A DNA stretch of 64,000 nucleotides from Escherichia coli O157:H7 (GCF_013167455.1 NZ_CP038328.1), one strand, 5' to 3'; numbered from the stretch's first letter, positions 54,001 through 60,000 are shown. Numbers are program-made.

Positions 54001-57000
54001 GCGGATACGAGGTTAAGAAAGCCCTCAGTCTCGATTATCGTCACTGGATAATCTCCGTCAGGCTTCCTTACTCCGAACGCCCACCGCGTCCGTCCCGCAC
54101 ATTCCAGCAACGCATCTGGAGGTAACGTGCGGGTATTACTTCGACCTGTTCTGGTACCGGAACTCGGGCTGGTGATCGTTAAGCCGGGCCGTGAATCCAT
54201 GCCGGTATTCCACAATACCCGGGTACTGGTGGAGCCGGAACCGAAAAGCATGCGTAATCTGCCGTCCGGGGTCGTTCCTGCCGTTCGCCAGCCGCTGGCG
54301 GAGGATAAATCATTACTGCCATTTTTCAGCGACGAACGAGTGATTCGTGCTGCTGGTGGCGCTGGCGCACTGTCTGACTGGTTACTGCGCCATGTTAAAT
54401 CCTGCCAGTGGCCACACGGCGATTATCACCACAGTGAAACCGTCATTCACCGTTATGGTACCGGCGCAATGGTGTTGTGCTGGCACTGCGACAACCAGTT
54501 GCGTGACCAGACCTCCGAATCACTTGAGCAACTTGCTCACCAAAACCTGTCAGCATGGATGATTGACGTCATTCGTCACGCAATGAATGGCACACAGGAG
54601 CGTGAATTATCGCTGGCTGAATTATCCTGGTGGGCGGCCTGCAATCAGGTGGTGGATGCACTACCTGAGGCAGTAGCGCGTCGTTCGCTGGGATTACCAG
54701 CGGAAAAAATCCGCTCCGTATACCGTGAGAGTGACATCGTACCGGGAGAACAGACAGCCATCAGCATACTGAAGCAGCGCACAAAAAATATTGCGCTGCC
54801 ACTTCACGTCCACCAGCAACAAAATCCACCACAGAAAAAAACGGTTGTCAGTATCGCCGTTGATCCGGAGTCTCCTGAATCGTTCATGAGGCGGCCTAAA
54901 CGTTGCCGCTGGGTTAATGAGAAATACACGCGCTGGGTAAAGACACAGCCGTGTGCGTGTTGTGGTAAGCCTGCTGACGATCCGCATCACCTGATTGGTC
55001 ATGGTCAGGGGGGAATGGGGACAAAGGCCCACGATATTTTCACGCTACCGTTGTGCCGGGAGCACCACAACGAACTTCATGCAGACCCGCTGGAGTTTGA
55101 GAAAAAGTACGGCTCTCAGATTGAGTTAATTTTTCGTTTTCTTGATCACGCCTTTGCGACTGGCGTGCTCGGGTAAAAGAGGTGACTGATGCTCATAGAT
55201 TTGGTTTTACCTTACCCGCCGACGGTGAACACCTACTGGCGACGTCGTGGCAGCACATATTTTGTATCAAAAGCCGGTGAGCGTTATCGCCGGGCTGTGG
55301 CGCTTATTGTTCGCCAGCAGCGGCTGAAATTAAGCCTGTCCGGAAGGCTGGCGATAAAGATTATTGCCGAGCCACCGGATAAGCGCCGCCGTGACCTGGA
55401 CAATATTCTGAAAGCGCCGCTGGATGCGCTGACGCATGCGGGGTTGCTAATGGACGATGAGCAGTTTGATGAAATCAATATTGTGCGCGGTCAGCTCGTT
55501 CCTGGTGAGCGGCTGGGGATAAAAATCACAGAACTGGAGTGCGCATGAATAACCACTATTTACAGTTTGTGCGTGAGCTGCTCATTATCGCTACCGCCGA
55601 TTTGAGTGGGGCAACAAAAGGTCAGCTTGAAGCCTGGCAGGAGAATGCCATGTTCGATACAGGGCGTTACAGGCGAAAAAAAATCCGGTACCGCGATGAA
55701 GTGACTGGAAAAATGATAACGCGGGATAATCCACCAATCCCGGGAAAGCAATCGCTGGCGAAGGTGACGTCAATTCCTCTGGTCAGTCCGGTTGAGTTTT
55801 CGACATCATCGTGGCGGCGGGCTGTTCTGTCTCTTGAAGAACATCATAAAGCCTGGTTGTTGTGGTGTTACAGCGGGAGTATTTGTTGGGAATATCAGAT
55901 CGCGATAACACAGTGGGCGTGGAATGAATTTAATACTCAATCCGGTACCAGAAAAATTGCAGGGAAAACGCAGGAACGCCTGAAAAAATTAATCTGGCTG
56001 GCGGCGCAGGCAGTAAAAGCAGAACTTTTTGGTGGGGAAGGTTATGAATACAAGGAGCTGGCATTACTGGTGGGAGTGACAACTAAAAACTGGTCCAAAA
56101 CATTTACTCGTCACTGGGTTGCAATGAAACACATTTTTCACCGACTGGATAGTGAGGCTTTATTGTTTGTAATGAGAACGCGTTCAAAACAAAAGGCGGC
56201 ATTTTCAAAGCAAAGTGTTGCAAAAGTAGATTGAAAGGCATATATTTCATGCAAATCTGATATTTTGCCGATTTTGTACGTGATGGCAAAAGCAAACAAA
56301 ACCCGCCCACAAGCGGGTTTTTTTGTGCCACTTATCTCGGATAGACATGGTGAATGCGCTGGTGGAGGAAGCAAGGGTAATTTTTAACCAGGTGATTCTT
56401 GAATGCTTGCAACATTGATTTCGTAACGTTATTATCCTGCGCCCGGCCCTTTAGCTCAGTGGTGAGAGCGAGCGACTCATAATCGCCAGGCCGCTGGTTC
56501 AAATCCAGCAAGGGCCACCATCACATACCGCCATTAGCTCATCGGGATAGAACGCCAGCCTTCGAAGCTGGTTTCGCGGGGTTCGAGTCTCCGATGGCGG
56601 TCCATTATCGGTATTCTGCGTTTTTAGCTCAGCCGGACAGAGCAATTGCCTTCTAAGCAATCGGTCACTGGTTCGAACCCAGTACAACGCACCACACTTA
56701 TTTTCCCTCGCTCGCTTTTGCGGACCTTTTTTGTATCCGCACCACGCCCGGCGCATACCAACCACAGAGCCTTTCGGGGGGAGCTTATGGAGTGGTCAGT
56801 GTGACTTTCTCTGTGGGCAGATCGCTCCCGGGCGTTGGCTCACCCACCCAAAGGAACGTCACGATGTTTGGTATTTTTGGTAAAAAAAGCCCGCAGAGCG
56901 GCAACGGAAATTAAAAAGTTTGAAAAACGCGATCTGGCACAGGTGGTGATTAACGCCGCATACCTGGTGGCCTGTGCAGATGGTGAATGTGAGGCATCCG

Positions 57001-60000
57001 AGAAAGCGAAGATCGAACAGGTACTGCGTAATCAGCCTGCGCTGTACGCGTTTACGTCAGAAATTAATGCGATTAGCGCAACCATTATCGGTCAGCTGGA
57101 TACGAACTTTAAAACTGGTCGTCGTGCGGCGTTACGTGAGATCGAGGATGTGAAACACGATACGCGTGAAGCGGAAGATGTGCTGGATGTGGCGGTGGCC
57201 ATTGCGGAGGCAGACGGCGAAATTGAGCCGGAAGAGCGCAAGGTGCTGGAAGAGATTGCCGGTGTTCTGGGTCTTCGTCTGGAGAATTACCTGTGACGGT
57301 AAAACTGCGCCTGACTGTGGCTGCACTCCTGCTGTTTCTGGTGGTGATGGTGGATTTCACCAGCAGAATCATGTCGGTGCTGGCGGATGGGGGGCTGGTC
57401 TGCGGCATTATGGTATTGCTGTGGCCGGTGATAAAAAGAAACAGCCTGCATAATGCTTGATTTTTTTGTTTGCTGTTTATTAAAAACACTTCTGCATGGT
57501 GAATCCCCCTGTGCGGTGGGGCAATCAGCAAGAAGGAATATGGGGTAATCGCGGATTCAGGTGCTGATACTGAATTCACCGGGAGGCACCCGGCACCATG
57601 CTTTGCCACAAAAGTGTTATTTCTGTTTTTCTCAAACTATCATCGTTATCCCTTTATTTTCGGCTGCGCATGGCGCGGCCTTTTTTTACGACCAGCCACT
57701 GGCAGATGGTCTTCCTGTGATTTGATTCCGCTTCCGGCTTTTTAACTCTGTTCCTCTACACGGGAGAAATTCGATGTCGATTAAACATTATGATGTTGTC
57801 AGGGCGGCGTCGCCGTCAGACCTTGCGGAAAAGCTGACACACAAACTGAAAGAGGGCTGGCAGCCATACGGCGGACCGGTTGCCATTACGCCGTACACAC
57901 TGATGCAGGCGGTGGCTATTGAAGGAGAGCCACAGGTCGGCCCTTCATCTGAGCCGGATTGGTACTACGTCATCGTACTGGCCGGGCAGTCCAATGCCAT
58001 GGCTTACGGTGAAGGGCTTCCGCTGCCGGATTCATACGATGCTCCGGATCCGCGCATTAAACAGCTGGCGCGCCGCAGTACAGTGACGCCGGGCGGGGCT
58101 GCCTGCAGATATAACGATATTATTCCGGCTGACCACTGTCTGCATGATGTGCAGGATATGAGTACGCTGAATCATCCGAGGGCTGACCTGAGCAAAGGGC
58201 AGTACGGCTGTGTCGGCCAGGGTTTACATATTGCCAAAAAACTGCTCCCGTATATCCCGAATAACGCGGGGATCCTGCTGGTACCATGCTGTCGTGGTGG
58301 TTCGGCATTTACCCAGGGCGCGGAGGGGACATTCAGCGAGTCCACGGGGGCCAGTCAGGATTCGGCACGCTGGGGGGTGGGCAAGCCGTTATATCAGGAT
58401 CTGATTTCCCGCACAAAAGCGGCATTGCAGAAAAATCCCAAAAACGTTCTGCTGGCCGTCTGCTGGATGCAGGGTGAGTTTGACATGAGCGCCGCCACCC
58501 ACGCACAGCAACCTGCGCTGTTTACAGCCATGCTGACACAGTTTCGTGCTGACCTCTCCGTGTTTAACGCGCAGTGCCATGGTGGCAGCGCTGCAGATGT
58601 GCCGTGGATTTGTGGTGACACGACGTATTACTGGAAAAATACATACGCTACCCAGTACGACACCGTGTACGGCGGGTATAAAAACAGGGAGAGTGAGGGC
58701 GTTTATTTTGTGCCCTTCATGACAGACGGTAACGGCGTCAATACCGCCACTAACGCGCCGGCAGAAGATCCGGATATTCCGGCATCAGGATATTACGGTG
58801 CGGCATCGAGAACGAATGGAAACCAGGTATCATCAAACCGCCCGACACATTTCAGTTCATGGGCGCGCAGGAGCATTATTCCGGATCGTCTGGCAACCGC
58901 TATTCTGAACGCAGCCGGGCGCACCTCAGCCTTCATCAGTGGTAAGGCACCGGAAATCAAACCCTCGCCCGGCGGCAACACGCCATCGGGTCCGTCTGCA
59001 GATACGTCCGTTCGCACAATCTCCCTGCTGCCGGCAGCCGGAGAGGCTGCTGCGCAGGGCTGGAGCATTAAGGATGGCGGAATTCAGTTGTCAGATGGTG
59101 TATTTAAGATCACCAGGCAGAGCAATAAAACCTGGTCCCTGACGCATCCGGTGGATGACGCAATTACCCTGCTGACACAGGGCGGCAGACTGACCTGTAA
59201 GTTCCGCCTGTCAGGCGCACTGACCAACAATCAGTTCGGGCTGGGGATTTATCTGTATACGGATGCTCCCGTTCCTGATGGTGTGGCGATGACGGGTACC
59301 GGTAATCCGTTCCTGATGTCGTACTTCACTCAGACCACTGACGGCAGGGTGAATCTGATGCATCACAGGAAAGCCGGAAACACGAAGCTGGGGGAGTTCG
59401 GCGATTACGGTAACGACTGGCAGACGCTGGAGCTGGTGTTCACCGCCGGCAGTGCCATGGTTACTCCGAAACTGAATGGAGTGGCTGGCCCGGCATTCCA
59501 GGTTATAAAAGACAGTCTGACACTGGGACTGAATGCGCTGACGCTGACGGATGTTACAAAAAATGCAGCGTATGGCGTTGAGATAGAAAGTCTGATGCTG
59601 GAGATAAATGCACCGGCAGCATAATAAAAAAACAGCCAGTACTGACTTTCGTCGGAGAAGTACTGAACCGCCCCGGGTTTCCTGGAGAGTGTTTTATCTG
59701 TGAACTCAGGCTGCCAGATCATCGTTTCCGATGGAAGCATAATAAGCTTTTTCTGCTTCTGCCGGAGGAGTATGGCCCAGCCTTCCCAGCAATCGTCGAT
59801 TGTTATACCAGTCCACCCACGTTAGTGTGGCCAGTTCCACTTCTGCACGGTTTTTCCAGCTCTTACGGTGTATTACCTCCGCTTTGTAAAGACCATTGAT
59901 GCTCTCAGCCATCGCGTTGTCATACGAGTCGCCTGTACTCCCTGTTGATGCCAGTAATCCGGCTTCTTTTAGTCGCTCCGTATAGGCCAGTGACACATAC

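Follow-up and report, generated by a model that had tools for sequence, protein, structure and literature searches.

The stretch of DNA considered here, which we call the window, comprises 64,000 nt of Escherichia coli O157:H7 (GCF_013167455.1, NZ_CP038328.1), and contains, in an O157:H7-type background, a lambdoid prophage inserted beside tRNA-Ser and mtfA. Within this prophage lies a TerB-like gene followed by a second, small gene; the two are named tciA and tciB in phage records. tciA is a TerB-domain accessory ('moron') gene that is carried together with tciB by lambdoid prophages, downstream of the antiterminator gene Q and the phage tRNA genes. In the window copy, a run of seven adenines (A7) separates the canonical ATG of the family from the frame that encodes the TerB domain. 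The features of the gene are as follows.

56835..57296, + strand, maximal open reading frame (ORF) in the TerB frame, from TTG 56835; +1 frame, TerB-like (ORF list)
56850..56856, + strand, Shine-Dalgarno-like AAAGGAA, serving the canonical ATG and conserved across all allele classes (direct reading)
56864..56914, + strand, truncated 0-frame from the canonical ATG of the family, MFGIFGKKSPQSGNGN and then TAA (direct reading, ORF list)
56868..57296, + strand, tciA according to RefSeq, TTG start, 142 aa, WP_001303558.1, in the TerB-domain frame (annotation of identical sequence)
56882..56888, + strand, A7 homopolymer, equal to A6 plus one inserted A, the frameshifting lesion (direct reading, homologue alignment)
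57000..57002, + strand, codon 46, GAG and intact in the window, TAG (E46*) in many sister A7 copies

It can be seen by direct reading that the AAGGA core of the Shine-Dalgarno-like element (56851-56855) lies 8 nt ahead of the ATG at 56864-56866, and that the 0-frame from this ATG reads ATG TTT GGT ATT TTT GGT AAA AAA AGC CCG CAG AGC GGC AAC GGA AAT TAA, giving a peptide of 16 codons (MFGIFGKKSPQSGNGN) that ends with the TAA at 56912-56914. The A7 run begins 18 nt after the ATG, and the TerB-like sequence continues in the +1 frame as far as 57296. This arrangement had been set out in a preliminary description of the window, and both the reading and the ORF list bear it out. The same description named TTG 56835 as the sole in-frame start of the TerB frame, which was incorrect, as this frame contains two further TTG codons, 56868-56870 (4 nt past the ATG and 12 nt from the AAGGA core) and 56877-56879; its statement that the frame has no ATG or GTG holds for the 5' part, the first GTG being found further on at 56943 (codon 27). 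The start assigned by RefSeq, using the Prokaryotic Genome Annotation Pipeline (PGAP), to the 100%-identical gene of strain FRIK1989 (429 nt, 142 aa, WP_001303558.1) corresponds to 56868. Homopolymer runs of at least 7 occur 21 times in the window, so that the length of A7 alone is not unusual; what sets this run apart is its position relative to the canonical ATG.

A 781-nt region spanning the gene was searched in 5,426 complete E. coli genomes and was found at 3,118 places in 806 of them, with a median of 5 copies per genome. Alignment of the start regions resolved three allele classes.

A6 class, after the ATG: ATGTTTGGTATTTTTGGTAAAAAAGCC, encoding MFGIFGKKARR..., 143 codons, for example in phage JLK-2012
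KKKT class, after the ATG: ATGTTTGGAATCTTCAAAAAGAAAACC, encoding MFGIFKKKTRR..., 143 codons, with the run interrupted
A7 class, the A6 sequence plus one A, with the ATG out of frame with the TerB domain

Every class other than A7 reads 143 codons from the same ATG, with A6 or an interrupted AAAAAGAAAACC. Because these intact relatives share the ATG, encode 143 aa and carry A6 or the interrupted AAAAAGAAAACC, A7 is a 1-nt insertion into an A6 tract. Comparison of the homologues shows that the ancestral tciA started at ATG 56864 and encoded 143 aa, and that in one allele lineage codons 7-8 (GGT AAA AAA G) constitute the A6 run, to which one extra A has been added in the window copy. Relative to the intact members of the family, the window copy carries a disabling lesion, the +1A insertion, which lies 18 nt past the canonical ATG; 2 substitutions separate this copy from its nearest intact relatives. 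Removal of one A joins MFGIFGKK to the TerB frame, and this arrangement exists in real homologues; both the proposal that six A's would make this fusion and the prediction that homologous prophage genes would carry A6 were therefore correct. One such homologue, tciA of Escherichia phage JLK-2012 (AFB75444.1), has ~92% DNA identity to the window copy and shares with it the position after the phage tRNAs and the tciA-tciB pair with its GTGA overlap, but it has A6 and an uninterrupted 143-codon ORF, whereas the window copy has A7 and an ATG that is out of frame. Two IMG/VR contigs (2737471839_000026 and 2737471857_000014) carry an A5 remnant of tciA, in which unrelated sequence takes over after the first ~17 codons; the slot here holds a deletion or replacement variant.

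The frequency of the run lengths was determined by allele-specific megablast with the exact 86-nt flanks of the window copy against complete E. coli records. A perfect match on these flanks was obtained for A7 in 553 of 680 records, for A6 in 3 and for A8 in 0, the carriers of A7 including O157:H7, O55:H7, O26, O103, O111 and enteropathogenic E. coli (EPEC) strains. When haplotypes were counted with an E-value cutoff that passes perfect 127-nt matches only, the haplotype of the window (A7 with GAG at codon 46) was present at 507 places in 286 genomes; its TAG counterpart was found at 126 places in 122 genomes. On the same flanks in IMG/VR, A7 was found 47 times and A6 45 times, copy counts that are inflated by some loci being the same contig entered twice (the analyses of unique haplotypes are unaffected); A5 occurred only in the truncated remnant, and there was no A8 or longer run. 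We conclude that A7 is a genuine allele, one that is common among O157-type strains of E. coli, and that it has spread among prophages and serotypes.

To what family the gene belongs is clear from its A6-corrected conceptual translation, which matches PHROG 632 ('tellurite resistance') with E=2.1e-68, residues 1-143 against profile positions 1-143, and from the overlapping tciB (PHROG 1470 / DUF3927) that lies behind it. There is also a match to the Pfam TerB model PF05099, with an i-Evalue of 8e-7 for residues 98-138, a weaker second stretch at 11-53 and partial coverage of the model, and to the TerB structure PDB 2JXU, in which residues 21-144 of chain A align with residues 15-137 of the query (E=4e-7). 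The TerB protein of Klebsiella pneumoniae (2JXU), which belongs to the terZABCDE tellurite-resistance cluster, has the same domain, including the acidic ADGE..E motif, but the relation to TciA is distant, with Pfam coverage that is partial and in two pieces, and unlike TerB, TciA is not encoded in a ter operon, its partner being a hydrophobic protein of 55 aa whose gene, like tciA, lies in the late region of the prophage. By sequence, the window gene can be placed in the TerB-domain family and in the prophage tciA family, yet it does not count as an intact member of PHROG 632, for which an uninterrupted ORF from the canonical ATG is expected, as the A7 copy reaches a stop after 16 codons. A PADLOC scan for membership of an anti-phage defence system returned one non-significant match only, and an NCBIfam scan returned only sub-threshold matches to DjlA and YmfL, which are explained by the shared TerB-like segment. 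A further profile, PHROG 3920 (48 aa), corresponds only to residues 96-143 of TciA, its C-terminal third; it is probably the outcome of ORFs being called on tciA copies that were truncated or pseudogenised, and would be a database artefact of the same decay.

Among unique haplotypes with the ATG start, the segregating variants comprise 114 synonymous (S) and 26 nonsynonymous (N) changes (40 S and 15 N in the A6 class, 74 S and 11 N in the KKKT class). The tciA family, as represented by its ATG-start alleles, is a real gene under strong purifying selection. The A7 class shows 19 S and 12 N, which differs from the ATG-start alleles with p=0.03, and variants private to A7 number 2 S and 5 N as compared with 66 S and 17 N private to the ATG-start alleles (Fisher p=0.009). 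The A7-private changes include D117E, in the otherwise invariant ADGE motif, V35E and R125C. Because the S/N contrast is not significant on singletons alone, the argument for relaxed selection rests on the private variants together with second-hit stop codons.

One such stop results from the GAG to TAG change at codon 46, which is linked to a synonymous A>T at 56996 and was found in 8 of 18 unique A7 haplotypes, in 18 of 22 copies of a first sample and in 30 of 45 copies in the IMG/VR scan; the ORF is otherwise intact in 10 of the 18 unique A7 haplotypes, while 35 of 37 A6 copies are intact. Several A7 copies are flagged by PGAP as pseudogenes with an internal stop. The codon 46 stop is probably a single event that spread. 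The same TAG is also seen, rarely, on A6 and KKKT backgrounds, and its presence on several backgrounds suggests recombination among paralogous prophage copies. Intact paralogues coexist with A7 copies in the same genomes: in O157:H7 strain F6321 a copy with A7 and the stop is accompanied by a KKKT copy, intact and 143 aa long, in another prophage. The 371 genomes in which the intact KKKT allele was found, at 551 places, include many of O157:H7, and the JLK-type A6 allele occurs at 102 places in 88 genomes.

Taking these observations together, we consider it likely, with a probability of about 0.8, that the window copy is a heritable loss-of-function or strongly hypomorphic frameshift allele of tciA, that is, a pseudogene or weak hypomorph within a redundant prophage family. 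It looks like ordinary gene decay rather than a recoding or switching device, and of the four alternatives put forward in the preliminary description (sequencing error, phase variation, decay or a +1 slippage site), decay gives the best fit to the observations. The extra A would have arisen by replication slippage. Ribosomes would still load at the well-placed ATG, make the 16-residue peptide and stop at TAA 56912, and the TerB frame would be reached rarely, either from the poorly placed TTG 56868 or by an occasional non-programmed slip; tciB, which has its own GGAG, may still be made. Relaxed selection on the broken copy, which is expected because each genome holds several paralogous copies, some of them intact, would then have allowed second-hit nonsense codons and an excess of amino-acid changes to appear in sister copies. 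The window copy itself would be a young lesion in a lineage with signs of decay.

Several points weigh against this interpretation. The window copy is without a second lesion, having the frameshift only and an intact remainder of the ORF, and the haplotype with A7 only is the commonest A7 form (the 507 places given above); this abundance, which is mostly clonal O157:H7, shows neither selection nor decay. The A7-private variants are few, the whole-class contrast reaches just p=0.03, and the haplotypes are mosaic recombinants, so that the variants are not independent. In addition, the in-frame TTG lies 4 nt past the ATG and its use would change the product in the first 5-6 residues only, so that some functional protein might still be made from TTG 56868. 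Finally, indels in homonucleotide repeats of 3-8 nt are bypassed at a low, non-programmed level (Rockah-Shmuel et al., 2013, PMC3812077), and trace expression of the TerB frame by such a route is conceivable by analogy.

The strongest of the competing explanations, though in our view an unlikely one, is that the gene functions as RefSeq annotates it, with initiation at TTG 56868 giving a 142-aa TciA with an altered N-terminus. A7 would then be a variant of low expression that is tolerated or even favoured. PGAP chose TTG 56868, which is in frame; the product of this start begins MVFLVKKARR... in place of the canonical MFGIFGKK and is altered in residues 1-6 only, outside the TerB-aligned residues 15-137. 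The A7-only haplotype is also very common, and the 10 of 18 unique A7 haplotypes with an otherwise intact ORF would be in keeping with function. However, this codon lies 12 nt from the AAGGA core rather than the 8 nt of the ATG, and it overlaps that strong and well-placed competitor. For initiation in E. coli a TTG codon and a 12-nt spacing are both poor, and a small fraction of initiation at best is to be expected. No non-A7 homologue uses TTG 56868, as it is out of frame there, and the accumulation of nonsense and private nonsynonymous changes in A7 copies is not what would be expected of a functional TTG start. Moreover, the choice of start by PGAP follows ORF and homology logic and is not evidence of use. 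The preliminary description had held that clearly functional A7 homologues starting at the TTG would speak against its interpretation; such homologues exist as far as annotation goes, but nothing shows them to be clearly functional, and many have a nonsense codon.

Less probable still is that A7 is a selected, low-dose form of tciA, from which mostly the 16-aa peptide would be made together with a small fixed fraction of TciA, the TerB frame being entered at TTG 56868 or through slippage (+1) of tRNA-Lys on AAA-AAA-A, and that the spread of A7 reflects selection damping TciA dosage. If this were so, the distribution of A7 over several prophages per genome and over several serotypes of Shiga-toxin-producing E. 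coli (STEC) and EPEC would represent damping of TciA in polylysogens, with tciB kept.

We give very little credence to programmed recoding, in which a +1 shift on AAA AAA A, or transcripts with A6 or A9, would set a ratio between the 16-aa peptide and full-length TciA. Perfect re-pairing of tRNA-Lys with the A run is possible after a +1 shift, and the documented low-level bypass of indels in 3-8 nt repeats (PMC3812077) lends the idea some plausibility. Indeed, the tciA case resembles the homopolymer-indel pseudogenes of that study in being a single-base insertion in a short coding A run, so that residual expression by slippage is plausible in principle, but A7 in tciA needs a correction of -1 or +2, which is seldom given by slippage of E. 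coli RNA polymerase in A runs (PMC5574713). In that work almost all of the transcriptional slippage in A/T runs consisted of single-base insertions and <1% of deletions started in runs; because insertions are favoured, and +1 insertions fail to restore the frame, transcriptional slippage is an unlikely rescue. The frameshift is, furthermore, not conserved, as the A6 and KKKT classes encode the fused protein directly in one frame. Programmed shifts are normally conserved across a family. At the site itself, the 0-frame A-site codon after the run is the sense codon AGC, no GGAGG-like Shine-Dalgarno element lies directly 5' of A7, and a fold of 56889-56968 revealed no downstream RNA structure (z=-0.19). 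Nor is the 0-frame peptide conserved, one copy having an earlier stop, and the second-hit stops fall inside the supposed product. The programmed +1 frameshifting of prfB, which encodes release factor 2 (RF2), relies on a conserved shift site where the A site holds an in-frame stop and a Shine-Dalgarno-like stimulator lies upstream, an arrangement conserved across bacteria; tciA A7 shares with it just the required +1 direction, and differs in having AGC in the A site, no stimulator and no conservation of the shift among homologues. We conclude that there is no positive evidence for the +1 slippage site that had been suggested.

Phase variation, the toggling of the A tract between A6 (ON) and A7 (OFF) at high frequency as a contingency locus, appears highly implausible. 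All four combinations of A6 or A7 with GAG or TAG at codon 46 exist, which could mean recurrent changes of the tract, but they are explained equally well by recombination among paralogous prophage copies. On identical flanks there are 553 records with A7, 3 with A6 and none with A8, and two of the three A6 copies on A7-type flanks have an internal stop, while the third, which might be taken as a switch, comes from a laboratory derivative of strain 86-24. When the run was removed from the 760-nt sequences, 47 haplotypes remained, and in 0 of 47 were two run lengths seen; together with the lack of A8 or longer runs in IMG/VR, this means that the tract was not found to vary in length among close isolates or haplotypes. 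A run of seven bases is, in any case, short for slipped-strand switching. Last, a sequencing or assembly error over a true A6 can be rejected. Homopolymer miscalls are common on some platforms, but the identical A7 recurs in IMG/VR contigs and, by the hundred, in complete genomes that were sequenced independently and cover several serotypes (the 553 of 680 records above), and it is linked to specific flanking haplotypes.

The setting of the gene within the prophage is summarised below; the local order is RusA, Q, the three tRNAs, tciA, tciB, a terminator-like hairpin, a SASA/NanS-p-type esterase, IS1203, and holin and lysozyme.

55545..56234, + strand, antiterminator Q, late-operon regulator (annotation)
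56445..56694, + strand, three phage tRNA genes, Ile/Met-CAU, Arg-UCG and Arg-UCU, between Q and tciA (tRNA scan, annotation)
57281..57284, + strand, GGAG, the Shine-Dalgarno of tciB itself, 8 nt ahead of its GTG (direct reading)
57293..57460, + strand, tciB, DUF3927, a 55-aa small hydrophobic protein whose GTG overlaps the tciA stop (GTGA) (ORF list, annotation; phrog_1470 'TciB-like', E=6.7e-29)
57662..57687, + strand, terminator-like GC hairpin and T-run behind tciB (consensus scan only)
57774-59624, SASA/NanS-p-type esterase (annotation)

The tciA-tciB pair sits in the late-operon 'moron' slot that is occupied by stx in Shiga-toxin phages. Of 22 A7 copies examined, 21 have an intact tciB, which with its own GGAG may be expressed independently of tciA. 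The first phage tRNA (56445-56520) was called tRNA-Met (anticodon CAT) by ARAGORN and tRNA-Ile by RefSeq; the Met/Ile call is, as usual, ambiguous for CAU tRNAs, which are read as Ile after lysidine modification, and this tRNA belongs to the Ile-Arg-Arg trio typical of Stx-type phages. Overlapping the start of the esterase gene, RefSeq annotates a short antisense pseudogene fragment (57655-57797, - strand; frameshifted, with an internal stop and both ends missing) that is present at all related loci examined.

The host prophage, whose insertion site beside tRNA-Ser and mtfA is probably the Sp10/CP-933O site, shows degradation of its own: its integrase carries a frameshift according to the annotation, and IS1203 separates the esterase from the holin. 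Collinearity between the window and FRIK1989 begins at 31878, beyond which the two sequences show 2 mismatches. In the near-identical FRIK1989 record the annotation marks the integrase gene (42443-43490, - strand, beside tRNA-Ser/mtfA) as frameshifted, and the interval of 1048 nt is not a multiple of 3; a T7/A7 run inside it (43216-43222) is read through in frame, and the integrase lesion therefore lies elsewhere. An element of the IS3 family (IS1203/IS629, ~1.31 kb) occurs four times in the 64 kb, at 10656-11965, 21720-23034, 30566-31887 and 59706-60919, the fourth being the late-region copy that lies past the esterase gene and ahead of the holin. The first three, in the first 31.9 kb, are missing from the otherwise identical FRIK1989 sequence, and because of this we regard the window as coming from a different O157:H7-type strain, richer in insertion sequences than FRIK1989. 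Elsewhere in the window, the toxin gene cbtA (CbtA/CbeA type IV toxin-antitoxin; ~1378-1751, - strand) is another disabled gene, being annotated as frameshifted in a 100%-identical block of FRIK1989 (locus 5317-5690), and yeeJ, an 8-kb gene for an inverse-autotransporter adhesin, has internal direct repeats of ~790 nt with 85% identity at 36520-37910, which are presumably tandem immunoglobulin-like domain repeats.

Searches for papers on TerB, lambdoid prophages and O157 found nothing on this gene; in the literature that was found, tciA appears only in papers on P1-like phage-plasmids, as annotation only, and no experimental or functional study of the prophage tciA-tciB pair was found. The biological weight of the broken allele is small, as it represents one more case of erosion of a prophage accessory gene by a homopolymer indel in a polylysogenic pathogen, and events of this kind are already known. 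Of more practical consequence is that in hundreds of genomes the frameshifted allele goes under the RefSeq name 'tellurite resistance TerB family protein', as if intact, with 142 aa counted from the TTG; this start is probably an annotation rescue, and the naming could mislead analyses of gene content and pan-genomes. It is the tciA-tciB family, more than the broken copy, that is worth study, as a strongly conserved occupant of the stx slot.

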